A stretch of DNA of 64,000 nt from a virus (IMGVR_UViG_3300017917_002441:85074-149073), one strand, 5' to 3'; counted from the first letter of the stretch, positions 1 to 34,097 are shown. Notes: generated from the letters alone by a model not told the origin. A program made the numbers and translations.

Positions 1-1836
1 GCTGAATATGCCAAAATTGTTCGAGATCTATACCAGAAGGGAGCAGGCCTTGTGGTACTTAATGTACTCATGCCAGAGCCAGACCGCACAGGTGGCGACA
101 GTGCGTTGGGTCAAACTCTAAAGGAATTCCCAGTAGTGCTGGGCAGTGCGCCTGCAAACAACACCAAAAACACTCCACGAGTACCTGGCTCAGCAGTGCT
201 GAATCCCGAGTACCTAGATCAAATCATACAATATCCGGGGTTAATAGCCAACGTTCCGCAATTGGAACGCAATGCCGCTGGTGTTGGCGTCACAGGCACA
301 CTGCCCGAAGTCGACGGTGTTAATCGTCGCATGCCTTTGATTGTTGCAGTAGATGGCAAACTATATCCAGCTCTAAGCTTAGAAACTTTGCGTGTGGCAG
401 CCAACGATTCAACCTTTCAAGTCAAGCTGTTTGAAGGCGGTGTTGAAAAAATGCGCATTCCACAGTTTGGTGTCATTGCAACGGATAGCCTAGGGCGTGT
501 GTGGATTGACTGGAGTCAACAAAGTCAAAGCTACAGTCTAACCAATATACCAAACAATTTAAACGGAGCTATTGTAATAGTAGGCCCTACGGCCGCTGGA
601 ATAGGTAACCCGTTGCCAACTGCTCGTGGTGCTGTGTGGCCGCACGAAGTGCAAGCCGCAGTGATAGGCACCATGGTCAACGGCGTTGTTATACAACGTC
701 CTGACTACGCAGACGGTGTAGAAATCATAGCCCTGGCAGTGGCTAGTATATTACTGCTGTTTTTAACAAGGTGGACTTATGCGGGATTGGCTAGTGTTAT
801 TGTGTTGGTTTGTGGCTCCGTGGCTGGTAGTTGGTGGGCTTTTACTAATCATTTATGGTTATATGACGCTACTGCCTTTGCAGTTGGCACAGTCCTGGTC
901 GCTTTGCATGCCTACGGAGTCAAATTTGTTTCAGAGTTCTTACAGAAACAACAAATAAAGAAACAGTTTGGCACATATCTCTCGCCCGCCATGGTTGAGA
1001 AGTTGCAGAAGAATCCTGAGCTATTAACTTTGGGTGGCGAGTCAAGAGAGTTAAGTATCATGTTCACTGATGTGCGCGGGTTTACTTCGATATCTGAACA
1101 CTATGGTCGAGACGTACAAGGTCTTACTAAAATTATGAACCGGTACATGACTGCAATGACTGCCAAGATCATAGAAAACAACGGAACGTTAGACAAATAC
1201 ATTGGCGATGCACAAATGGCATTTTGGAACGCACCGCTAGACGATGCAGATCACGCAAAAAACGCAGTTCGAACAGCATTAGAAATGATGAGGAGCCTTG
1301 ATGACTTTAATGCAGAAATTACTCAAGAAGGTGTGCCAGCCTTTGGTATGGGTCTTGGAATCAACACCGACACTGTTGTGGTGGGTAATATGGGATCTAG
1401 TCAGCGTTTTGACTATACTTGCCTTGGTGATGGCGTCAATTTGGCTAGCCGATTGGAGGGCCAGAGTAAGCCGTACGGTGTCCGAATTGTACTTGGTCCA
1501 AGGACTGCAGAATTGGTGCAGGAAGAATACTACGTACTAGAACTAGACTGTATTGCTGTTAAAGGCAAAACACAAGGTGTACACATCTATACAGTGCTAG
1601 GGCACAACAATGATGTTGTTGCCGAATCCAATGATAGACAGATGCACGAAGCAATGTTGGCATTGTATCGTCAGAAAAAGTTTGATACAGCTATAAAATT
1701 CTGTCAGGACTTGCGCGGAAGATTCAACGGTGAAATGGATTACTACTACACTGCTTGGATTGAACGTTGTGAAGAAATGAAAAACACCCCTTTGCCCACA
1801 GACTGGGACGGGGTGTATCGTGCTACCAGCAAATAA
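1..1836 (+). CDS. CHASE2-domain membrane adenylate cyclase (class III), 5'-truncated by the window edge
   Basis: Frame open from base 1. CHASE2-like sensor region (EVDGVNRRMPL, GAVWPHEVQA), three TM helices, then cyclase motifs FTDVRGFT, DKYIGDAQMAFW and DYTCLGDGVNLASRLE. Lys/Asp at specificity positions fit an adenylyl cyclase. Confidence 0.92.
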   Translation, partial: AEYAKIVRDLYQKGAGLVVLNVLMPEPDRTGGDSALGQTLKEFPVVLGSAPANNTKNTPRVPGSAVLNPEYLDQIIQYPGLIANVPQLERNAAGVGVTGTLPEVDGVNRRMPLIVAVDGKLYPALSLETLRVAANDSTFQVKLFEGGVEKMRIPQFGVIATDSLGRVWIDWSQQSQSYSLTNIPNNLNGAIVIVGPTAAGIGNPLPTARGAVWPHEVQAAVIGTMVNGVVIQRPDYADGVEIIALAVASILLLFLTRWTYAGLASVIVLVCGSVAGSWWAFTNHLWLYDATAFAVGTVLVALHAYGVKFVSEFLQKQQIKKQFGTYLSPAMVEKLQKNPELLTLGGESRELSIMFTDVRGFTSISEHYGRDVQGLTKIMNRYMTAMTAKIIENNGTLDKYIGDAQMAFWNAPLDDADHAKNAVRTALEMMRSLDDFNAEITQEGVPAFGMGLGINTDTVVVGNMGSSQRFDYTCLGDGVNLASRLEGQSKPYGVRIVLGPRTAELVQEEYYVLELDCIAVKGKTQGVHIYTVLGHNNDVVAESNDRQMHEAMLALYRQKKFDTAIKFCQDLRGRFNGEMDYYYTAWIERCEEMKNTPLPTDWDGVYRATSK

Positions 1837-1838
1837 AT

Positions 1839-2132
1839 TTACTGAGCCTTGTCAACAGATTTGTTGATTTTCTTGTCAGCTTCCATGCGTTCGCGTTCAA
1901 TTTTATCGCCACGCAAATGCAAAGTCACAGTGACCTTTTGATTGAGTCTGATCAAATCGTTATCCAACATACGAATACGATCGATCAAGGCAATTAATGT
2001 GGTGTTGGCTTCGCTCAACACTGGCTTGATTTCTGTTGTTGCCCACTTCCATACATAAAATATCAAGTAGCCCATGCCCCCGGCAGCTACTATAGGAAAT
2101 CCATATTTGTTAACTAATTCTACAATGTCCAT
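1839..2132 (-). CDS. Small single-TM coiled-coil membrane protein (YvrJ/holin-like GFPI motif)
   Basis: N-terminal YGFPIVAAGGMGYLIFYVW helix followed by a heptad-like segment. Paralogue of 2621-2899. Confidence 0.6.
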   Translation of the reverse strand: MDIVELVNKYGFPIVAAGGMGYLIFYVWKWATTEIKPVLSEANTTLIALIDRIRMLDNDLIRLNQKVTVTLHLRGDKIERERMEADKKINKSVDKAQ

Positions 2133-2135
2133 ACT

Positions 2136-2285
2136 TTACCCCAATAAAATTCCAACAACAACACCGATTGCAAACGCAACACTGGCAACATAAAACAAAT
2201 CTCGGTCATGCCATAGAGGTTGATTTTTTAAATATATTTTGGTATGTTCAGGTAGACTGTTGTACCATTGGCTCCATTTGTCCAT
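2136..2285 (-). CDS. Small membrane protein (49 aa, not in ORF track)
   Basis: Read manually: MDKWSQWYNSLPEHTKIYLKNQPLWHDRDLFYVASVAFAIGVVVGILLG*. C-terminal TM helix; fills the gap in the operon. Confidence 0.55.
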   Translation of the reverse strand: MDKWSQWYNSLPEHTKIYLKNQPLWHDRDLFYVASVAFAIGVVVGILLG

Positions 2286-2430
2286 GTTGTAATCCTTGTT
2301 GTACTAATGCATTTAATTGGTCGGCGCATCGTCTAATATCTTGCGACAGTTCTCCGTTACCAATGTCCTTTTCAACATCTCTTGCTACGTCATGCAGTTT
2401 AATTACGTCATCTACTAGTCTAAGAATCAT
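2248..2430 (-). CDS. Hypothetical protein
   Basis: ORF 2248-2475; likely start at MILRLVDD, just after the upstream small gene. Confidence 0.5.
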   Translation of the reverse strand: MILRLVDDVIKLHDVARDVEKDIGNGELSQDIRRCADQLNALVQQGLQHGQMEPMVQQST

Positions 2431-2440
2431 GTGATGCCTC

Positions 2441-2620
2441 TCAATCAATTTTGTTAACAAACTTTTCAAACGCATCTAGCCGACGCAGCCAACGCTGGCC
2501 GTCAATCTCAACCAGCTGAAAAACGTCACCGGGATTCCAAGTTAGTTTTGCAACATTGATCTCTTCGTCAAGTTTGATACCGTTGGGATACAAGTCCCAG
2601 TCATAATCAACGTACTTCAT
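2441..2620 (-). CDS. Small AbrB/MazE-like protein (59 aa, not in ORF track)
   Basis: MKYVDYDWDLYPNGIKLDEEINVAKLTWNPGDVFQLVEIDGQRWLRRLDAFEKFVNKID*. LxWxxGD swapped-hairpin-like motif; abuts the upstream stop. Confidence 0.5.
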   Translation of the reverse strand: MKYVDYDWDLYPNGIKLDEEINVAKLTWNPGDVFQLVEIDGQRWLRRLDAFEKFVNKID

Positions 2621-2899
2621 TTAGTCCCTTCTAGCATCACTTTGTTCTGCTCGAGCAATACGATCTAAGTCAGGTTCTAGCCCTAGAGCATGCGATACTT
2701 TGGTGTCAATACGTACAACGTCGTGATTCATGGCAGCCACACGTTTGTCTAATGCGCCAATAATACCGGCCATGCCTTTAACGCTGGAGGTAACTCCAGC
2801 AAGAATAAATTTCAGTGTTAGAAATACAAAATAGCCGGCTGCAATAGCGGCTGCGATTGGAAAACCTAGTTCTGCAACTAGCTTGAAAAACTCACCCAT
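2621..2899 (-). CDS. Small single-TM membrane protein (YvrJ/holin-like GFPI motif)
   Basis: LGFPIAAAIAAGYFVFLTL helix, AAGGAG RBS, TAAATA upstream (2936-2941). Confidence 0.6.
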   Translation of the reverse strand: MGEFFKLVAELGFPIAAAIAAGYFVFLTLKFILAGVTSSVKGMAGIIGALDKRVAAMNHDVVRIDTKVSHALGLEPDLDRIARAEQSDARRD

Positions 2900-2944
2900 G
2901 TTGGCTCCTTGAAGGATATAATTTTATTATGCAATTATTTATTA

Positions 2945-4036
2945 TTACCGCTGTATAATAGTGATCACTGTGGTTCCGCCGCGATTAATCTGCTGTGTTA
3001 ATGGTGTACCGTCTTGCACAATGTTTAGCATAACATCAGCTTCAAGATCCACAGTTACTTGTGCAGTGTGTGTGGTTTGTTTGCGTAGCACTAGTTTGGT
3101 GTCGTCTTCGTTTTTTCCGTAAGTTAGCCCACTGGCAGCTGAGTACCCTGGCAACATTGTTTGTTCAGCTAATATAGCTTCTTGACTAGCAGACAACGTT
3201 TGGTTGGCCACGTCCAGCATGTTTGTTAAAAAATTAACGTCCAAGTAGTTGATATCTAGTTCAACAAATTTTCGAAGTTGGTCTTGGTCCAGTTCGTCAT
3301 ATTTTAAAAAATCTTGATTTAAAAAATTTACATCTAATACAGTGCGTTGATCTGTGTTGTTGTCTTTTTCCGTGCTTTGCTTAATCTCAGGTGGCGGGCT
3401 AACAATCAATAAGTTGTTGATGTTAGCAGGGTCTACAGTTACTACCACAGGAGCGGTTGGCGGAGTTGACAAGCTGGCAACCAAAGTAGCTTGAAAAGGT
3501 TGGTCTAGTAATACAACCCCGGCATCATTGCTGACCATAATAGCCCCAGTGACACAGGCTCGTGAATCACAGCTGGGCAATAGCATAACCAGGCTACGGC
3601 CCAGTTCGTCTACAGTCATTGAAAAATCTGTACCACGCACTGCCACTGTAGCAGTGGGGGTCTGTACGTTGACATTTTGCGGTGAGTTTTTTGCTATCTG
3701 CCCTGATGCGTATCTAGCAGTGCCTTGTACCATTTTCATGGCCAATTTGCCAGATCCTTTTTTTGGATCATACACAAAGTCGTCTATCACCAACTTTGAT
3801 TGTTCGGTAATTTTAACAGTGGTATTGTCGTCAAATGTGAGTTGAGCTTTTGCTCGAGCAGTTACCACAGTGTCGTTCATCTCCACGGCGGAATTTACAT
3901 TACTCGATACAGACTTTTTGTTGCGTATGATTTCAGTAGGGCCAGTTTGTTCTGTTACCCGGCCCACTGCCGCCCAATTAGTCTGACTGAATAATGCTAA
4001 TATTATTGAGATTGCCAGTGCTGTTGACCGTGACAC
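2945..4036 (-). CDS. Secreted FecR-domain protein
   Basis: Signal peptide and FecR motifs (DTVVT, LTFDDNTTVKITEQSKLVID, VQTPTATVAVRGTDF). Confidence 0.85.
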   Translation of the reverse strand: MSRSTALAISIILALFSQTNWAAVGRVTEQTGPTEIIRNKKSVSSNVNSAVEMNDTVVTARAKAQLTFDDNTTVKITEQSKLVIDDFVYDPKKGSGKLAMKMVQGTARYASGQIAKNSPQNVNVQTPTATVAVRGTDFSMTVDELGRSLVMLLPSCDSRACVTGAIMVSNDAGVVLLDQPFQATLVASLSTPPTAPVVVTVDPANINNLLIVSPPPEIKQSTEKDNNTDQRTVLDVNFLNQDFLKYDELDQDQLRKFVELDINYLDVNFLTNMLDVANQTLSASQEAILAEQTMLPGYSAASGLTYGKNEDDTKLVLRKQTTHTAQVTVDLEADVMLNIVQDGTPLTQQINRGGTTVITIIQR

Positions 4037-4601
4037 TCTTGTTTAACATTCCACTTTGTGTTACTGCTACAGTGTTGGTATTGCCAGTCACTGTGATATC
4101 TGCTGAAGTTGTGCCAGTAGCAGTGCTGGTATGAGTCACAGTGTTAGTGTCCCCCGCAACAGTGATGTTACTGGTGTGATTTGCGCCAGCACCTAGAGTC
4201 TGTGTTATGGTGTTGTTGTCACCGTTCACAGTTTGTGTGATAGTACTACCGCCGCAGGTTGATGACACTGTGCTACCACATGTGATTTCCTGAGTGTTGG
4301 TACTGCCAATGGTTGCAACAGCCACAGTTGTAGCCGCACCGTTTACCACCATGTTCAACACATTGTTGCTACCAATTTGATCTATAGTAACAGTGTTTGC
4401 ACCTGACCCAATGTATGCTGGATTCAAACTTGATCCAACTCGATTATCACTACCGTCTTGGGTAATGGTAATAGTACTGCCGCTGCCAATTTGTTCAACA
4501 TAAACTTCGTTGGCATGCCCCGGCATTATCATCGCAGACAATGCTAGAATTGCAAGTATTTTTTTCGACAACTTGCCAGCGCCTGTTCTTCCTTTTTTCA
4601 T
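3978..4601 (-). CDS. Curlin-like (CsgA/CsgB-type) repeat protein
   Basis: Signal peptide, then Q/N/G/T-rich beta-arc repeats (VEQIGSGSTITITQDGSDN, IDQIGSNN, VNGDNN, VTGNTNTVAVTQSG). Lies directly downstream of csgG. Confidence 0.7.
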   Translation of the reverse strand: MKKGRTGAGKLSKKILAILALSAMIMPGHANEVYVEQIGSGSTITITQDGSDNRVGSSLNPAYIGSGANTVTIDQIGSNNVLNMVVNGAATTVAVATIGSTNTQEITCGSTVSSTCGGSTITQTVNGDNNTITQTLGAGANHTSNITVAGDTNTVTHTSTATGTTSADITVTGNTNTVAVTQSGMLNKSVTVNSTGNLNNISIIQSD

Positions 4602-4603
4602 TT

Positions 4604-5383
4604 TTATTGTTTTCCTCGGAATCTCCAGAGCCCTCTTTTCTCACCCTCAACAATCATTTCGTAAACACCTTGTTCAATGGCTACACGAACTGCATAGTTT
4701 GTGGGTTCATTCAATGCGGCACCGCTTTCTAACTCAACACTGTTGGTGCTTTGATCAACAAAGCGCAACACGCCGACATTGTGTGCAGTGCTATAGATAG
4801 TCTTGGAAACAGCGTTGGTCAGTAAAACTTCGCCCGAGTTAACGCTGATTAATCTTAAACTGATTACAACTTCATCAACTCGATACTGTTGGCTCCCACC
4901 GATTCCCAAAAATCTAGCACCATTACCACCGGATCGTATATTGCTATCGTATCCAATAATGCCTCCTTCTATCATGATACCAGCCACTGTGAGTGGCTTC
5001 AAGGGCTTGGCATCTTTGCCCTCGTAAACTTCACGCTGGTTGCGTATAAGTTGACGTTCTTTGACCAAGTTGTCTAATCCCACACGTTCAACAACTCGAA
5101 ACCAATTTTTACTATCTTGTAAACTCTTTATTAGATACACTTCGGCGCCCTGAGTAACTGCTTTACTAAACAGTGCCAGTTTATCATTGGGTTTCATTTG
5201 TCCGGTTTTGTCTGCAAACCCATACACAGCTATGGTCATGGGAGGACCGTCTAGTGCAGGCAAATTGTTCAGCAAGTTCTCACGTGGTTGCAAGGCCACC
5301 GGTTCTTCTCGAGCCAATTCCATGTGTATATTGGCACAGCCACTCAGCGTTAACAAAACAATAATAGCGATTAGGTACTTCAT
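4604..5383 (-). CDS. csgG: Curli production assembly/transport lipoprotein CsgG
   Basis: Lipobox LSGC; IAVYGFADKTGQ, SKAVTQGA, WFRVVERVGLDNLVKERQLIR, EGGIIGYDSN and GARFLGIG motifs. Confidence 0.93.
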   Translation of the reverse strand: MKYLIAIIVLLTLSGCANIHMELAREEPVALQPRENLLNNLPALDGPPMTIAVYGFADKTGQMKPNDKLALFSKAVTQGAEVYLIKSLQDSKNWFRVVERVGLDNLVKERQLIRNQREVYEGKDAKPLKPLTVAGIMIEGGIIGYDSNIRSGGNGARFLGIGGSQQYRVDEVVISLRLISVNSGEVLLTNAVSKTIYSTAHNVGVLRFVDQSTNSVELESGAALNEPTNYAVRVAIEQGVYEMIVEGEKRGLWRFRGKQ

Positions 5384-5829
5384 TAGAATGCAAAGCTCGC
5401 TATTGGAACAGTAATGTCAGTTCTATTACCGTTGGACTCTATTATGGTTAGAGTAACATCTGCGCCAGTCTTGACCCAACTTATATTTGTTCCTTGAAAG
5501 TCTAAGTTGCCAGATGTGGCACCGCCATCGGCAAACATTGCGTCTGCCAGTTGTTTGGATAATTGTGCGTAGATACGTGATTCAACGTTGACTAAGAACT
5601 TGGCCAAGTTAGTATTCTTGGCATCACGTTCGGCCTTGTCGGCCAAGGCCTTGGCTTCGTCTCGGAGTTTTTGTTTGCGTTGGTTTTCCAACTGCTCGAT
5701 TGTCAGGACGTGGCTACTATACCCTTGTCCTGAGAAGGCTGGCGAGTTGAACTGATGCACCAGTTCGGTGGCGTGGCTCCGGCCGATAATTACTACTGCC
5801 AGGGCGCCTGCGATTATAATTTTATTCAT
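5383..5829 (-). CDS. csgF: Curli production assembly/transport component CsgF
   Basis: Signal peptide, then mature N-terminus TELVHQFNSPAFSG; ESRIYAQLS motif and C-terminal TDITVP. Adjacent to csgG. Confidence 0.85.
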   Translation of the reverse strand: MNKIIIAGALAVVIIGRSHATELVHQFNSPAFSGQGYSSHVLTIEQLENQRKQKLRDEAKALADKAERDAKNTNLAKFLVNVESRIYAQLSKQLADAMFADGGATSGNLDFQGTNISWVKTGADVTLTIIESNGNRTDITVPIASFAF

Positions 5830-5833
5830 GACA

Positions 5834-5862
5834 ATCCCCGTGCTTAGTATTTACACGGGGAT
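5834..5862 (-). promoter_or_regulatory. Late promoter (TAAATA) in the loop of a 9-bp hairpin that sequesters the csgF RBS
   Basis: Minus strand reads ATCCCCGTG-TAAATACTAAG-CACGGGGAT-TGTC-ATG. Confidence 0.65.
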
Positions 5863-5910: not shown

Positions 5911-6165
5911 TTACTTTTTTGGTTTTGTGGTCTTGTTAGCTCCAGAGCTAACAGTCTTTTTTGGTTGTGGCTTTCGTGTTGGCTTGTTGCCTGTGGCCAC
6001 AGGATCAACTGGCTTCTTGGCTGGTTGCTTGCGACTGTTCACAACAGGCTTTACAGGATTGACCACTGGCGTTTCTGCCACCGGCGGCACTGGTGCTTCG
6101 ATCTTGTAAGGCGCCGCTGGTTCGGCCTGTTTGATACCAAAAAGGTTTGTGATGAATTTTAACAT
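5911..6165 (-). CDS. Pro/Lys-rich hypothetical protein
   Basis: AAGGAG RBS, TAAATA upstream, low-complexity basic tail. Confidence 0.65.
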   Translation of the reverse strand: MLKFITNLFGIKQAEPAAPYKIEAPVPPVAETPVVNPVKPVVNSRKQPAKKPVDPVATGNKPTRKPQPKKTVSSGANKTTKPKK

Positions 6166-6222
6166 GAGTTATCTCCTTAGGAAATTATTTAACCATAATT
6201 TTGGTTTTGGCAGAATTTGTTT

Positions 6223-6442: not shown

Positions 6443-6988
6443 ATGATAGCAACGACATTTCTCCACCAAGATGACTACCACTTGTACGGCTCGTGGTTAA
6501 AACAGCAAGATATAGAAACATTGCAACTATATTTTGGAGTCACAGTTACCACAGGATACATTGATCGGTTAATGGAACGTATTACTCGAGATCCTGAAAA
6601 ACACCGATTTTTAGTGGCATTTAATCACGATAGATGGCTTGGAGTGGTACATATAGCTGATACACCTGATTTAGGGGCAGAGTTTGGATTCATTGTAAGC
6701 AAGAGCTTTCGTGGCCAAGGGATTGGGGATCGTCTAATGGACGAAGCTACTACTTGGTGCAGAAATCGCAGATATCAACGATTGTATTTGCACTGTTTGA
6801 GTTGGAATGAACCCATTAAAAAATTGTGTCGCAAGCACGGTTTAGAAATACATCGTAACAATGGAGATTCAGAAGTTGAAGTTGATTTACCGCCCCCTAG
6901 TTTTTTTAGTATTGGCAAAGAAATTTCTTCAGTTCAACGCAACTTGTTTACTATGATGTTAGATCGCACATTGAACCCAACGCAATAA
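6443..6988 (+). CDS. GNAT family N-acetyltransferase
   Basis: AEFGFIVSKSFRGQGIGDRLM acetyl-CoA motif; NEPIKKLCRKHG. Confidence 0.88.
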   Translation: MIATTFLHQDDYHLYGSWLKQQDIETLQLYFGVTVTTGYIDRLMERITRDPEKHRFLVAFNHDRWLGVVHIADTPDLGAEFGFIVSKSFRGQGIGDRLMDEATTWCRNRRYQRLYLHCLSWNEPIKKLCRKHGLEIHRNNGDSEVEVDLPPPSFFSIGKEISSVQRNLFTMMLDRTLNPTQ

Positions 6989-6989
6989 A

Positions 6990-7574
6990 ATGATAGTTTA
7001 CATACACGGCGCCAGTGCTACTGCTGAAAGCTTTACGCATATCAGGCAATATGTCAGGGATACGTTTGAAGAACCTGACATCATGCTTGAATACAAAAGC
7101 GACGACGGCTTTGCCCATAATCTTGCTGAAATGAAAGGCAAGCTTGATGGCGAAGAAAGATTGTTTTTTATCAGTCACAGTCTAGGTGGTATCTATGCTT
7201 TGTATTTGGCCAATCATTATCAAGAAACAACACACGGGGGAGTTAGTTTAAGTACTCCATACGGTGGAAGCAAGGAAGCAGATTTTGCTCGTTATTTCCT
7301 GCCGTTCAATAGACTCATGAAAGACATTGGTTCAACGAGTCATCCAATGCGAGTAGCACGTGAATTACCTGCACCTCCAAATTGGACACAAATTATTTCA
7401 ACTGTGGGACAAAGTCCTTGGATACGTGATGACAATGACGGTGTGGTTACACTGGACAGCATGCGATTCCGCAAAGACTTTGAGCAGATAGAAGTTCCTT
7501 TAAATCATTATGAAGTTGTTATTAGTGATCGAGTGGTTGAGATAATCTTAGATAGGATTAAAAGATCATTATGA
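6990..7574 (+). CDS. Alpha/beta hydrolase (lipase/esterase-like)
   Basis: YIHG, nucleophile elbow SHSLGG, STPYGGS, NDGVV and the catalytic His in NHYEV. Confidence 0.88.
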   Translation: MIVYIHGASATAESFTHIRQYVRDTFEEPDIMLEYKSDDGFAHNLAEMKGKLDGEERLFFISHSLGGIYALYLANHYQETTHGGVSLSTPYGGSKEADFARYFLPFNRLMKDIGSTSHPMRVARELPAPPNWTQIISTVGQSPWIRDDNDGVVTLDSMRFRKDFEQIEVPLNHYEVVISDRVVEIILDRIKRSL

Positions 7575-8281
7575 TAGAACTAATATACACCTTGGTTATG
7601 GTACAAATTACCATTGCCTGCGTTACACTGTATTTGCATCGCAGTCAGGCACATCGCGCTGTGCAGTTTCACCCGGCAGTAGCACACTTTATGCGAGCTT
7701 GGCTGTGGATGACCACAGGCATGGTTACTCGACAGTGGGTCGCTATACATCGTCAGCATCATCAAGCGTCAGATACGCCACTGGACCCGCACAGTCCACA
7801 AGTTTATGGCATTTGGCGTGTGCTATTTGGCGGAGCATTTTTGTATCATCAAGCCAGTAAAAATAAAGCCATGATTGATCGTTTGGGCATGGGCACGCCG
7901 GATGACTGGGTAGAGCGCAATGTTTACTCAACACACAGTAGACTGGGCATTGTGCTGATGTTGTTGATCAATGTGTTGTTGTTTGGCTGGTGGGGATTTG
8001 TAATTTGGGGCATACAAATGATCTGGATTCCGTTTTGGGCCGCTGGTGTAGTCAATGGACTGTGTCACTGGTGGGGGTATAGAAATAACGAAACTCAAGA
8101 CACCAGCAGAAATCTGTGGCCTTGGGCCGTATGGATCGGCGGCGAAGAATTGCACAATGGGCATCACGCCGATGGTGCCAATCCCAAATTTAGCCAAAAA
8201 TGGTGGGAATTTGATATTGGGTGGGCGTACATACAAATACTACGCAGTTTGGGATTGGCAAAATTGAGAACCCCGCAATAA
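7571..8281 (+). CDS. Membrane acyl-CoA (delta-9 type) fatty acid desaturase
   Basis: His boxes HRSQAH, HRQHH and HNGHH; GGEELHN; WWEFDIGW. Confidence 0.92.
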   Translation: MIELIYTLVMVQITIACVTLYLHRSQAHRAVQFHPAVAHFMRAWLWMTTGMVTRQWVAIHRQHHQASDTPLDPHSPQVYGIWRVLFGGAFLYHQASKNKAMIDRLGMGTPDDWVERNVYSTHSRLGIVLMLLINVLLFGWWGFVIWGIQMIWIPFWAAGVVNGLCHWWGYRNNETQDTSRNLWPWAVWIGGEELHNGHHADGANPKFSQKWWEFDIGWAYIQILRSLGLAKLRTPQ

Positions 8282-10623: not shown

Positions 10624-11208
10624 ATGTCTGATAAAATGTCCCAAGATATTGATCTAGAAAAATCACCCGGTCAGCTGTTGCAAGACAATGGCATGTACGT
10701 TTTCATGGATGACGTTGACAACGACACCATTAGGCCCATTGTTGAGTGGATCTTGGTAGAAAACCATGTTACTAAACGCAAGAAAAAAGAATTGCTGTTG
10801 ATGATTTGCAGTTCTGGCGGGGAAATGGAGCCAGCATTTGCACTGATTGATGTTATGAAGAGCAGTTCTATTCCCATTAAAACAGTGGGCTTGGGACAAA
10901 TATCCAGCTGTGGACTGCTGATCTTTTTAGCAGGCGCACGTGGACGCAGGATCCTTACACCTAACACATCAATTTTAAGTCACCAATACAGCTGGGGCAG
11001 TGAAGGTAAACATCACGAACTATGGGCAATGACCAAGGAGTTTGGTCTGGCGCAAGAACGTATGTTGCGCCATTACAAAGAATGCACTGGCTTGAGTCAT
11101 GAAGAAATCAAAGACAAACTGTTGCCACCGCATGATGTGTGGCTCAGCTCAAAAGAAGCCCTGGACCTGGGCATTTGCGATTACGTCAGCGACTTAACCA
11201 AGAAATAA
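10624..11208 (+). CDS. ClpP-like serine protease (divergent copy)
   Basis: ICSSGGE, GQISSCG (Ser), LSHQ (His), HDVWLSSKEALDLGICD (Asp). Confidence 0.85.
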   Translation: MSDKMSQDIDLEKSPGQLLQDNGMYVFMDDVDNDTIRPIVEWILVENHVTKRKKKELLLMICSSGGEMEPAFALIDVMKSSSIPIKTVGLGQISSCGLLIFLAGARGRRILTPNTSILSHQYSWGSEGKHHELWAMTKEFGLAQERMLRHYKECTGLSHEEIKDKLLPPHDVWLSSKEALDLGICDYVSDLTKK

Positions 11209-13049: not shown

Positions 13050-13640
13050 GTGCCTAATCTAGTACCCATTGTTCTTGAACAAACCTCCAAAGGTGAACGC
13101 AGTTACGACATCTATAGCCGTTTGCTGAAAGACCGCATTATCATGCTGGACAACGAAGTCAGTGAGCACAGCGCCAGCTTGATTGTAGCTCAATTGTTGT
13201 TTCTTGAAAGCGAAGATCCCGACAAAGACATTAGCTTTTACATCAACTCTCCTGGCGGCGTAGTCACAGCAGGTATGGCAATTTACGATACCATGCAGTT
13301 TATCAAGCCCGATGTACAGACCATTGTCATGGGACAGGCCTGCTCCATGGGTTCGTTGTTGGCGCAAGCCGGAGCCCCGGGCAAACGCATGATACTGCCC
13401 AATGCCAGACACATGATTCATCAGCCCAGCGGTGGTGCTCGTGGACAAGCCACAGACATACAGATTCAAGCTCAAGAAATACTCAAAATGAAAAAGAACT
13501 TGACAGAAGTTTATGTCAAACATAACTCAGCTGACAAAACATTTGAACAGCTCAGTGCTGACATGGAACGCGATTTCTTTATGAGTGCAGAAGAAGCAGT
13601 GGCCTATGGGTTAGCAGACAAGATTATTGACAAACGCTGA
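13050..13640 (+). CDS. clpP: ATP-dependent Clp protease proteolytic subunit
   Basis: Near-canonical: [50 protein letters not shown]. Confidence 0.96.
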
Positions 13641-22276: not shown

Positions 22277-22512
22277 TGCCTTTTCCCAGCGCCTTTTCTG
22301 AATACATGCCCGAGCATGTTCACTTGTCAAGATCCACAGTAGACCACTGTTGGTCACTTTGGCCTCGTCGATGCAGTGTGTCTAATAGACTGCTATGGTT
22401 TACTAAAGCCTACCGTGCTCGCCGCATAATTACTGGACCTGGGGAGCCTGTGATAGTAGATCGCTGGTACGGGCCACTAGAATTTTTAATTTTACAACTG
22501 AAGGAAATTTAA
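22273..22512 (+). CDS. Hypothetical protein
   Basis: Coupled ORF upstream of metK. Confidence 0.55.
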   Translation: MMPFPSAFSEYMPEHVHLSRSTVDHCWSLWPRRCSVSNRLLWFTKAYRARRIITGPGEPVIVDRWYGPLEFLILQLKEI

Positions 22513-23612
22513 TGAGTTATTTGTTTACAAGCGAGAGCGTGAGTGAAGGACATCCAGACAAAGTAGCAGACGCCATTAGCGATGCTATCCTTGACTTGGT
22601 CATGTCCAAGCAAGACCCCACATTGCGTTGCGCATGTGAAACACTGGTCACAACAAACATGGTCACTGTGGCAGGCGAATACAAAGGTATTTTGCACAAA
22701 GAAGAAGTAGACTCTACCATTCGCAAAACTATCAAAAACATTGGTTACGAGCAGCCTGGCTTTGACTGGCGTACAGTAAAAATCTACAACGAGTTGCACG
22801 GACAATCAGCAGACATTGCACTGGGCACTGACAACTTTGGCGCTGGAGACCAAGGCTTGATGTTTGGTTATGCTTGCAATGAAACCGACAGTTACATGCC
22901 CAGCGCAATTTACTGGAGTCATCGCATTGTGGAAGGCTTGGCACAAGCACGTAAAAATGGTGTTGTGACTTGGCTTGGCCCCGACGCAAAAAGTCAAGTA
23001 ACTTTTGAATACGATGAAACAAACAAACCTATTCGTATTTCCAAGGTAGTTTGTAGTACACAACATGCCGAGTCAGTTGACATTGAAACTGTGCGCAGTG
23101 TTGTCAAAACTTTGATCACAAACATACTTCCAGTGCAATATGTTGATACAAATACTGATTTTTATATTAATCCTACTGGGCGCTTTGTTATTGGCGGCCC
23201 TGATGGCGACACTGGACTTACCGGTCGCAAAATTATCGTTGATACATATGGTGGTTATAGCCCTCACGGTGGCGGAGCTTTCTCTGGTAAAGACCCTACT
23301 AAAGTTGACCGTTCAGCCGCTTACATGATGCGCTACATTGCCAAGAACATTGTGGCCAGTGGACGTGCGGACTGGGCCACATGCCAAATCAGTTATGCTA
23401 TTGGTATGGCGCAACCCATGAGTTTCTACGTGGAATGCGAAGACCGAGCCCTGGCAAGAGATCTAACAATGCTGATTCCACGTGTGGTGGATTTGACACC
23501 AAAGGGCATTATTGATCGTTTTGATTTGTTTAGGCCTATTTACAGTTCTACAACAAATTATGGACACTTTGGTAAAGCAGATCTTCCTTGGGAACGGGTT
23601 GACTTGTTTTAA
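22512..23612 (+). CDS. metK: S-adenosylmethionine synthetase
   Basis: FTSESVSEGHPDK, GAGDQG, GGPDGDTGLTGRKIIVDTYGG, GGGAFSGKDPTKVDRS. Confidence 0.98.
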   Translation: MSYLFTSESVSEGHPDKVADAISDAILDLVMSKQDPTLRCACETLVTTNMVTVAGEYKGILHKEEVDSTIRKTIKNIGYEQPGFDWRTVKIYNELHGQSADIALGTDNFGAGDQGLMFGYACNETDSYMPSAIYWSHRIVEGLAQARKNGVVTWLGPDAKSQVTFEYDETNKPIRISKVVCSTQHAESVDIETVRSVVKTLITNILPVQYVDTNTDFYINPTGRFVIGGPDGDTGLTGRKIIVDTYGGYSPHGGGAFSGKDPTKVDRSAAYMMRYIAKNIVASGRADWATCQISYAIGMAQPMSFYVECEDRALARDLTMLIPRVVDLTPKGIIDRFDLFRPIYSSTTNYGHFGKADLPWERVDLF

Positions 23613-32932: not shown

Positions 32933-33014
32933 TCAATCAGTGACGAAAAATAGTATTTCGTATAGGGCTGGTATAAGTATTTTTATATCATTGCCCGCAA
33001 AGGAAAAATCCCAA

Positions 33015-34097
33015 ATGAAAATATCCCGCATTCCTAATTTAGGTAGCTTCGGTGTCTACATCGATGACTTTGACATGGACCGTGCCTCCCCCGAGGAGTG
33101 GTTAGAAGTTGGTAAAATTTTTGTCAAAGAACTAGTGGTAGTTTTACGAAACATCAACATCAGCAAAGAACAATACTACGATCAAATTCCAAAGTTTGGC
33201 CCAATATACAACATTGCAGGTTCTTATTTTTACAAGAAATATGGACACAATAATTTTAATAGAAACCCAGCAACTTGGGAACCCTTGGACGACCTTGACA
33301 AGAAGTTCATGGAGACTCGTTACATTCGCCAAGAAGATATTGGCAATAACAAATACCTTTCTAGAATTTATGGCGGCCGCGATGAGAATGGCCAGAGCCT
33401 AGGCTATTTTGATTCTGGTGACTTGTTTTGGCACAGCAACGAGGCTTCATCCCTGACTTTTGCTCCGTGTGTGTCATTATTGGGCTGGGAATCCATGGGT
33501 GGCAGCTCAACTGGATTCACCCAAACAGTTGATGTTTATGAAAACTTGCCCGAAAGCCTGCGCAAAGAACTTGATGAAATGGTGTTGGTACATGACTATG
33601 TTCCAGGTGTAGTCAACCCTGGCGAAATCACAGACCCAGTTATGGCCAAGCACACACTGATGAACTTTGGTCCTTTCCCGGGCATGGAAACACCTTTGGT
33701 GTGTACTGCCCCCAACGGGCGCAAAGGACTGCATTATGCAATTCACTCACGCAATGGCATTCGTGGTATGTCAAAAGAAGAGTCTGACAAACTGTTTGCA
33801 CGACTTGACAAACTGATCTTTGCCGAAAACAATGTGTACGATCACTGGTATGACGAGCAACGTCGAGATTTGTTGTTGTTTGATAACAGTGTTACACTGC
33901 ATCGTAGAATTGGTCACCAAGAAGGCCGCCTGGCATATCGTGTTCAGTTTACGCCCAGCGAAGTAGTTGAAAAGCCTTGGCTGCCTTGGGCACACATGCC
34001 AGCATGTGATCAACAATACCGTATCGAAATGAAAACATTGGTTGACTTGACTGGTGGCGACTTGCAGGCTCGATACAAAGTACCCGAGTTAGTTTAA
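33015..34097 (+). CDS. TauD/TfdA-like Fe(II)/2-oxoglutarate dioxygenase
   Basis: FWHSNE, GGSSTGF, YENLPESLRKEL, LLLFDNSVTLHRR. Confidence 0.8.
   Translation: MKISRIPNLGSFGVYIDDFDMDRASPEEWLEVGKIFVKELVVVLRNINISKEQYYDQIPKFGPIYNIAGSYFYKKYGHNNFNRNPATWEPLDDLDKKFMETRYIRQEDIGNNKYLSRIYGGRDENGQSLGYFDSGDLFWHSNEASSLTFAPCVSLLGWESMGGSSTGFTQTVDVYENLPESLRKELDEMVLVHDYVPGVVNPGEITDPVMAKHTLMNFGPFPGMETPLVCTAPNGRKGLHYAIHSRNGIRGMSKEESDKLFARLDKLIFAENNVYDHWYDEQRRDLLLFDNSVTLHRRIGHQEGRLAYRVQFTPSEVVEKPWLPWAHMPACDQQYRIEMKTLVDLTGGDLQARYKVPELV

Follow-up and report, generated by a model that had tools for sequence, protein, structure and literature searches.

We analyzed a 64,000-nucleotide (nt) stretch of viral DNA (IMGVR_UViG_3300017917_002441:85074-149073; this whole stretch is called the window) that begins with a set of curli secretion genes facing a gene for a CHASE2 adenylate cyclase. 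Judged by its genes and their order, this block is the published viral type VIII secretion system (T8SS)/FecR/adenylate cyclase module and is not new: the whole block, given as 'HK'-CsgF-CsgG-CsgA/B-FecR-(CsgA/B)-adenylate cyclase, is known from podoviruses and myoviruses that infect SAR11 (Wittmers et al. 2022, PMC9599517). The reading that we favor, with moderate confidence, is that of a known curli/FecR/cyclase module that has been rearranged in a jumbo myovirus and that would act by a mechanism leading from fiber export to cyclic AMP (cAMP). What is new here is the jumbo carrier lineage, the rare inversion of the cyclase gene, the lack of support for the 'HK' label, and a recurrent bacterial FecR/CHASE2 pair that occurs apart from curli.

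The source record is viral, an IMG/VR contig of 149 kb that is 44% complete by estimate, and the window is its final 64 kb. Virion and tail-fiber protein genes lie further along the window. The phage origin assumed in the original prediction, which had been made from the sequence of the window alone, is therefore sound.

Gene content and linkage of the module

The minus strand carries csgF, csgG, a curlin-repeat gene, and fecR as a tight operon, and all four gave a significant Pfam match (Table 1). csgF and csgG overlap by 1 nt, and the curlin gene starts 2 nt past the end of csgG. The original prediction had named these four genes and the cyclase at the positions listed in Table 1, and the profile searches bore it out. 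Residues 3 to 258 of the phage CsgG align end to end with E. coli CsgG (3x2r; 2e-50), and the N-terminal part of CsgF contains five invariant residues (F27, P30, F32, G34, and G36).

The curlin-like protein had weak matches to the CsgB/CsgA families of NCBIfam. Its repeats have invariant G-x-x-N and Q-x-G positions every 22 to 28 residues, and it contains a conserved Cys pair. An AlphaFold2 model of this protein (predicted local distance difference test [pLDDT] score of 84.9) consists of paired seven-residue strands, two per repeat, which form a beta-solenoid. A Foldseek search with the model returned nothing at E <= 0.001, and clear Z-scores came from structural re-alignment only: 16.0 for the SufBD beta-helix (5awg; root mean square deviation of 2.6 Å over 169 residues) and 14.4 for the E. 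coli CsgA fibril (23% identity). As the original prediction had anticipated, the product models as a secreted CsgA-like beta-solenoid subunit.

The full cyclase open reading frame (ORF) encodes 683 amino acids (contig 84858-86906) and begins 215 nt before the window; its transmembrane (TM) segments were read from the sequence. The best solved relative is the cyclase domain of Synechocystis Cya2. The catalytic set comprises two metal-binding Asp residues (D429 and D475), two specificity residues (K471 and T545), and two transition-state residues (N552 and R556). Across 51 homologues, D429, K471, D475, R541, and R556 are all kept, and the second specificity position is T or D. K471 aligns with a Glu of the guanylate cyclase Cya2 and with a Lys of an adenylate-converted Cya2 fusion. 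By these residues, the active site is complete and of the adenylate type, and cAMP is the predicted product.

Outside the catalytic domain, the C-terminal tail of the cyclase is also conserved in the bacterial CHASE2 cyclases that we sampled (the profile matched to position 674). A copy of this noncatalytic tail (37% identity over 60 residues) is held by a free-standing 128-amino-acid ORF (L002:3840-4226, plus strand); the copy lies at contig 79102-79281, ~5.8 to 6.0 kb before the start of the window. The cyclase scored 796 bits against phrog_35576, well above what would be expected at its 37 to 41% identity to the cyclases of the pelagiphages HTVC008M and Melnitz. This score suggests that a closer deposited phage relative probably exists; our search of the phage collection did not show one.

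fecR overlaps the curlin gene by 59 nt at its start (3978-4036), as it does in the jumbo-lineage loci L009, L021, and L028, and this overlap suggests coupled translation. The protein consists of a cleavable-looking signal peptide, a FecR domain (residues 55 to 144), a conserved Cys pair, a repeat-like LDxNxL stretch, and a C-terminal domain. FecR is the sole Pfam domain that was found, and there is no cytoplasmic anti-sigma domain. The gene call of the source record puts the start 23 codons later, by which the conserved signal peptide would be lost.

At 90% identity, this FecR component alone falls into about 6,800 metagenomic clusters. When we scanned a genome collection with the FecR profile, there were only four full-length hits, all on contigs of metagenome-assembled genomes that also carry the phage module (L084 to L087; three hold the whole block, and L087 is cut off upstream of fecR). 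In this collection, the full-length hits placed the C-terminal half of the phage FecR solely on phage-module contigs. The four genomes are species representatives labeled Flavobacteriaceae, Pelagibacter, Legionellales, and Pirellulales. We considered these contigs as a bacterial source of the protein and rejected them, since four unrelated phyla all carry the phage module on short contigs; they are probably viral contigs that were mis-binned into bacterial genomes.

The original prediction had also described small membrane proteins in a minus-strand operon that converges on the cyclase. This arrangement stands, with the correction that there are five small ORFs between fecR and the cyclase, beginning after a 45-nt gap past fecR, and that two of them, tmA and tmB, are paralogues (30% identity). 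The cyclase and tmA are convergent, with stop codons 2 nt apart (window 1834-1841). A terminator has no room between them, so transcripts of the two sides should overlap as antisense. All 30 of the ESM Atlas clusters nearest to tmB are viral, and the only invariant residues of the tmA/tmB family are P14, L50, and R53. The nearest named ESM Atlas cluster is YvrJ (0.89); 5 of 18 family members match YvrJ (PF12841), with a best E value of 0.004 that falls short of the curated threshold.

From their position before csgF, we infer that the published 'HK' genes (PMC9599517) are tmA/tmB. As a description of these proteins, 'histidine kinase' is unsupported: at 92 to 97 amino acids, they lack HisKA/DHp, HATPase_c, and a conserved His, and no kinase was found for them in Pfam (at E values up to 1) or in a PDB profile search.

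Table 1. Positions of the module genes and associated sequence features in the window
Feature	Position	Strand	Description
CHASE2/4-TM/class III adenylate cyclase	1-1836	+	CHASE2 7e-40; Guanylate_cyc 5e-19
tmA	1839-2132	-	97 amino acids; one N-terminal TM helix and a coiled-coil tail; phrog_18771 2.7e-33
Small ORF	2136-2285	-	49 amino acids; C-terminal TM helix; tblastn homologues (36-60% identity) in several related loci
Small ORF	2248-2475	-	75 amino acids (~60 from an internal ATG); homologues (56-69% identity) in L021 and L031
Small ORF	2441-2620	-	59 amino acids; homologues (35-51% identity) in about ten related loci
tmB	2621-2899	-	92 amino acids; TM/coiled-coil; conserved C-terminal DARRD motif; phrog_18771 7.5e-35
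TAAATA promoter-like box	2936-2941	-	~36 nt upstream of tmB
fecR	2945-4036	-	363 amino acids, exported; PF04773 9e-13
Curlin-repeat subunit	3978-4601	-	207 amino acids; signal peptide and ~7 repeats; PF07012 (Curlin_rpt) 5.9e-7
csgG	4604-5383	-	259 amino acids; outer-membrane lipoprotein channel; LSGC lipobox; PF03783 4.5e-52
csgF	5383-5829	-	148 amino acids; signal peptide; PF10614 1.4e-15, profile positions 6-132 of 132
9-bp hairpin	5834-5862	-	TAAATA (5848-5853) in the loop; csgF Shine-Dalgarno sequence in the 3' arm
Pro/Lys-rich low-complexity ORF	5911-6165	-	84 amino acids; good Shine-Dalgarno sequence; own TAAATA box; upstream of csgF
TAAATA box	6186-6191	-	Precedes the 84-amino-acid ORF
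TAAATA box	~220 nt before window start	+	11 nt before the cyclase ATG

A scan of IMG/VR with CsgG gave 79 related loci at 59 to 85% identity, several of them on contigs of 300 to 344 kb, and we took as a full-flank set the 35 viral loci in which csgG has 7 kb or more of DNA on either side. csgF, the curlin gene, and fecR are each present in 35/35 of these loci and the cyclase in 34/35; the link between the cyclase and the csg genes on which the original prediction depended thus holds in related genomes. tmA/tmB were found in 25 of the 35, and in the other ten, the cyclase comes to lie at the very end of the retrieved DNA because of large inserts. The placement of tmA/tmB varies: they lie upstream of csgF in 28 loci, convergent downstream of the cyclase in 23, and between fecR and the cyclase in 2 loci and the window. 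An inverted cyclase is rare (2 of 61 related loci), and the window shares that arrangement. Collectively, the seven core genes are intact, conserved, and linked through three gene orders. Even with the gene order broken, selection keeps FecR, tmA/tmB, and the cyclase in company with the curli genes.

Many relatives have an extra gene between fecR and the cyclase, which encodes a PA14-plus-curlin, discoidin, or autotransporter protein. The window has neither such an accessory adhesin-type gene nor a fusion of CsgG to an SH3 domain. Variants of this kind in related loci include a 1098-amino-acid protein with a discoidin domain (L005:11038-14334), a 682-amino-acid protein with an autotransporter beta-domain (L009:11122-13170), and a CsgG fused to a C-terminal SH3 domain (L009:7995-9242). 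In another locus, an unassigned 669-amino-acid ORF is inserted between csgF and csgG (L015:5992-8001). As for the 84-amino-acid ORF upstream of csgF, a homologue was found in L020 only, and its membership in the module is doubtful.

Expression signals, carrier lineage, and bacterial relatives

The contig contains 60 copies of the hexamer TAAATA, 29 of which lie 8 to 60 nt upstream of a gene start on the same strand, compared with 2.3 expected; by this distribution, it behaves as a promoter motif. The enrichment was seen for the TAAATA core only, as the full T4 late consensus (TATAAATA) was not enriched (2 copies versus 1.7 expected). A scan for sigma-70 promoters in turn stayed at chance level. 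The hairpin before csgF, which has a TAAATA box in its loop, recurs in related loci with different stem sequences. By analogy with the late genes of T4, the hairpin together with TAAATA suggests that csgF may be translated from late transcripts only.

Four relatives of 317 to 344 kb, three of which are at least 99% complete, encode a Gp23-type capsid protein that shares 68 to 71% identity with the capsid proteins of Vibrio phage 2.275.O, PA5oct, and Phosso; these three phages had no match to CsgG or the cyclase. The capsid sequences identify the carrier as a lineage of jumbo myoviruses of ~340 kb. A megablast search of the window against deposited phages gave no match, and searches for protein homologues and representatives were saturated by the phage family itself. 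The contig also holds an unusually rich set of cellular-type genes of a kind typical of jumbo phages, with DnaK, ClpP, S-adenosylmethionine synthetase, UV endonuclease, and lipid-related enzymes. These include genes for a full Hsp70/DnaK (L002:288-2168), UvdE (L002:8433-9461), two ClpP proteins (window 10624-11208 and 13050-13640), MetK (22512-23612), a TauD-type dioxygenase (32940-34097), and a GNAT protein, a hydrolase, and a desaturase (6443-8281).

In a CsgG tree, the five bacterial CsgGs of the curli type group as a single clan (100/100) that excludes every phage CsgG, and in a cyclase tree, all 20 phage cyclases form one clade (support of 1.0) among the bacterial CHASE2 cyclases. Jumbo copies join pelagiphage copies in these trees. 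Both trees, in which the bacterial samples are small and drawn from a single class, fit one acquisition that was followed by transfer between phage families. The presence of the block in a third, unrelated phage lineage indicates that it moves from one family of phages to another as a whole.

FecR, the cyclase, and tmA/tmB were absent within 10 kb of csgG at the five closest bacterial csgG loci that we sampled. Conversely, CsgG, CsgF, curlin, and tmA/tmB were found at none of 20 sampled bacterial CHASE2 cyclase loci, whereas a gene for a FecR-domain protein lies nearby, mostly directly adjacent, in 9 of the 20. The co-occurrence of FecR and CHASE2 cyclase genes in bacteria that the original prediction had put forward as established is thus seen here. 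Some of these bacterial FecR partners are ~500 amino acids long, and the others are giant proteins in which cadherin-like, Big_9, RTX, He_PIG, and laminin-G domains occur; such domains tie the bacterial FecR/CHASE2 sensor pair to surface adhesins. Given these neighborhoods, the phage block looks like a curli secretion pair joined to a FecR/CHASE2 sensor pair.

The module is very abundant. It was reported at all 65 GOV2 ocean stations and was expressed in metatranscriptomes (PMC9599517), and it would equip infected cells with a secretion system and an enzyme that makes a second messenger, both reportedly missing from the SAR11 and OM43 hosts of the cultured phages.

Proposed mechanism and alternative explanations

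In the mechanism that we propose for the rearranged module, the phage would install a CsgG/CsgF channel in the outer membrane of its host late in infection. This channel would export the curlin-type subunit, which would form a surface fiber, and in relatives it may also export adhesin-like cargo. By comparison with the bacterial FecR/CHASE2 pairs, the exported FecR-domain protein would pair with the CHASE2 domain in the periplasm, and cAMP could then signal the state of the fiber or the envelope to the cytoplasm.

Several observations weigh against this mechanism. A profile of the phage CsgF run against the PDB did not retrieve E. coli CsgF, and the constriction loop of CsgG reads KPNDKLALFS in the phage and KPYPASNFS in E. 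coli. Of the constriction residues Y51, N55, and F56 (E. coli numbering), Y51 is replaced by N and N55 by L, and only F56 is kept. The 149-kb contig has one curlin-repeat gene and no CsgA/CsgB (nucleator) pair, while a second curlin-repeat gene is present in some relatives. As the original prediction had noted for the window, there is no csgE or csgC; searches that did recover the E. coli control gave no match to CsgE or CsgC in the contig or in any of three complete relatives. Because the window lacks CsgE, CsgC, and a second (nucleator) curlin, assembly of a fiber is not assured. At the other end of the pathway, no cyclic nucleotide-binding domain or protein was found in the three complete relatives. 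We infer the contact between FecR and CHASE2 from gene neighborhood only; the AlphaFold model of FecR is poor (pLDDT of 57) and unfit for a structure search, and the bacterial samples of csgG and CHASE2 cyclase loci that we compared are small and drawn from one class only.

The block could instead serve two independent functions, with a curli coat that captures siblings, aggregates cells, or bars superinfection, and a cyclase that separately reprograms host metabolism through cAMP with no coupling by FecR. Ideas of aggregation and exclusion have been raised before (Zaragoza-Solas et al. 2020, PMC7029224; PMC9599517), and the adenylate cyclase is not always present in podovirus versions of the block (PMC9599517). 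In the window, the cyclase has a TAAATA box to itself and is encoded on the other strand, as might be expected of a separate function. However, the cyclase stays beside the csg genes in 34 of 35 loci through three rearrangements, and its periplasmic CHASE2 sensor domain is kept whole. FecR, moreover, is fixed between curlin and the cyclase with the 59-nt overlap of the curlin gene, and the bacterial FecR pairs with CHASE2 cyclases and not with curli. Taking both sides together, we think it unlikely that the two halves act independently.

A device for the timing of lysis has also been argued from synteny (Buchholz et al. 2022, PMC9004378). Here, CsgG/CsgF would be a gated outer-membrane pore or secretin-like valve instead of an exporter of fibers and tmA/tmB would be holin/antiholin-like proteins of the inner membrane, so that together they time the breach of the envelope. 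The late-type promoter boxes and the translational hairpin are what such a device would call for, no CsgE gate is encoded, and tmA/tmB, which are small and have a single TM helix, faintly match a holin PHROG at the N terminus (E value of 0.0018). We nonetheless regard this explanation as quite improbable. It leaves FecR and the cyclase without a role, the CsgG pore is narrow and sits in the outer membrane, and it does not account for a curlin subunit with invariant amyloid-type repeat positions in 35/35 full-flank loci or for adhesin-type cargo in the accessory slot of relatives. We give very little credence to a further proposal, raised in PMC9599517, that an ungated CsgG admits cofactors or siderophores while FecR senses iron as in FecIRA. 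That no CsgE is encoded would suit an ungated channel, and the name FecR and an argument from iron limitation (PMC9599517) have been brought forward in its favor, but in the phage protein, the FecR domain comes straight after a signal peptide and there is no anti-sigma domain. Neither a TonB-dependent transducer nor an extracytoplasmic function sigma factor belongs to the conserved block, and the bacterial counterparts of FecR have CHASE2 cyclases as neighbors and are joined to adhesin repeats, not to iron-uptake genes.

A bolder extension of the fiber-export-to-cAMP mechanism is that the seven genes form one envelope-spanning sensor, in which contact with or the state of a fiber or adhesin is passed through FecR to the CHASE2 cyclase and on to a late decision such as the timing of lysis. 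It would sense neighboring cells, particles, or superinfecting phages, with cAMP acting perhaps via tmA/tmB or a host receptor. The universal presence of the curlin subunit, the retention of CHASE2, and the bacterial FecR/CHASE2 pairing favor the fiber-export-to-cAMP mechanism over its rivals; the extension as a whole we consider quite unlikely. If true, it would offer the CHASE2 domain, which is poorly understood, its first physiological input, and the FecR-adhesin/CHASE2 pairs of bacteria would be open to the same reasoning.

Comparison with known systems

The original prediction had presented the fiber subunit and the signaling arm as additions to what was known of phage csgF/csgG, and this did not hold up. 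Both are equally present in HTVC008M (gp014-019) and Melnitz (gp99-104), and the block as a whole is published (PMC9599517). The first two papers on phage curli genes described only csgFG and 'curli-associated' genes (PMC9004378; PMC7029224). Our full-text literature search found no further paper that combines the components of the block, nor any report of it from jumbo phages. The proposed functions, namely a surface amyloid or pore linked to cAMP, aggregation, exclusion, and the timing of lysis, match speculation that is already in print.

The closest likeness is to the modules of the cultured pelagiphages HTVC008M (gp011-019) and Melnitz (gp97-104), which contain the same seven families, co-directional and annotated in their records. 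The order csgF-csgG-curlin-fecR is identical to that of the window, and CsgE is likewise absent; the published viral block also lacks CsgE, and its viral copies are monophyletic (PMC9599517). The window differs from these modules in four respects. Its proteins are only 37 to 50% identical to the HTVC008M and Melnitz examples, and its carrier is a jumbo myovirus of ~340 kb rather than a pelagimyophage of ~140 kb or a podovirus. The cyclase is inverted with tmA/tmB between fecR and the cyclase, whereas in HTVC008M and Melnitz, tmA/tmB precede csgF. Finally, unlike the published pelagiphage block, the window has no second curlin or adhesin gene between fecR and the cyclase.

With the curli system of E. 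coli (csgBAC/csgDEFG), the module shares a CsgG that aligns end to end, a CsgF that matches the full profile, and curlin repeats of ~23 residues. In contrast to E. coli, the phage has a single subunit gene and lacks CsgE and CsgC (CsgD was not searched for), while FecR, the cyclase, and tmA/tmB are added. The phage subunit also differs from E. coli CsgA in having no Gly-rich N-terminal targeting segment. FecR, the adenylate cyclase, and 'HK' are not members of bacterial curli operons (PMC9599517).

The counterparts of these added components are found elsewhere. Homology between the phage cyclase and the bacterial CHASE2 cyclases extends over the entire protein, C-terminal tail included. Known CHASE2 cyclases include Synechocystis Cya2 and CyaD1, CyaD2, and CyaK of S. 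meliloti (see also PMC5498481). The phage FecR, at 363 amino acids, is shorter than its bacterial counterparts of ~500 amino acids or those that are giant fusions to adhesin repeats, and it does not have the layout of a FecIRA-type regulator, which consists of an anti-sigma domain, a TM helix, and a periplasmic FecR domain. The bacterial comparison would recast FecR as a partner of CHASE2 rather than an iron regulator. Together with the lack of support for the 'histidine kinase' label, this refines a known system and does not define a new one.

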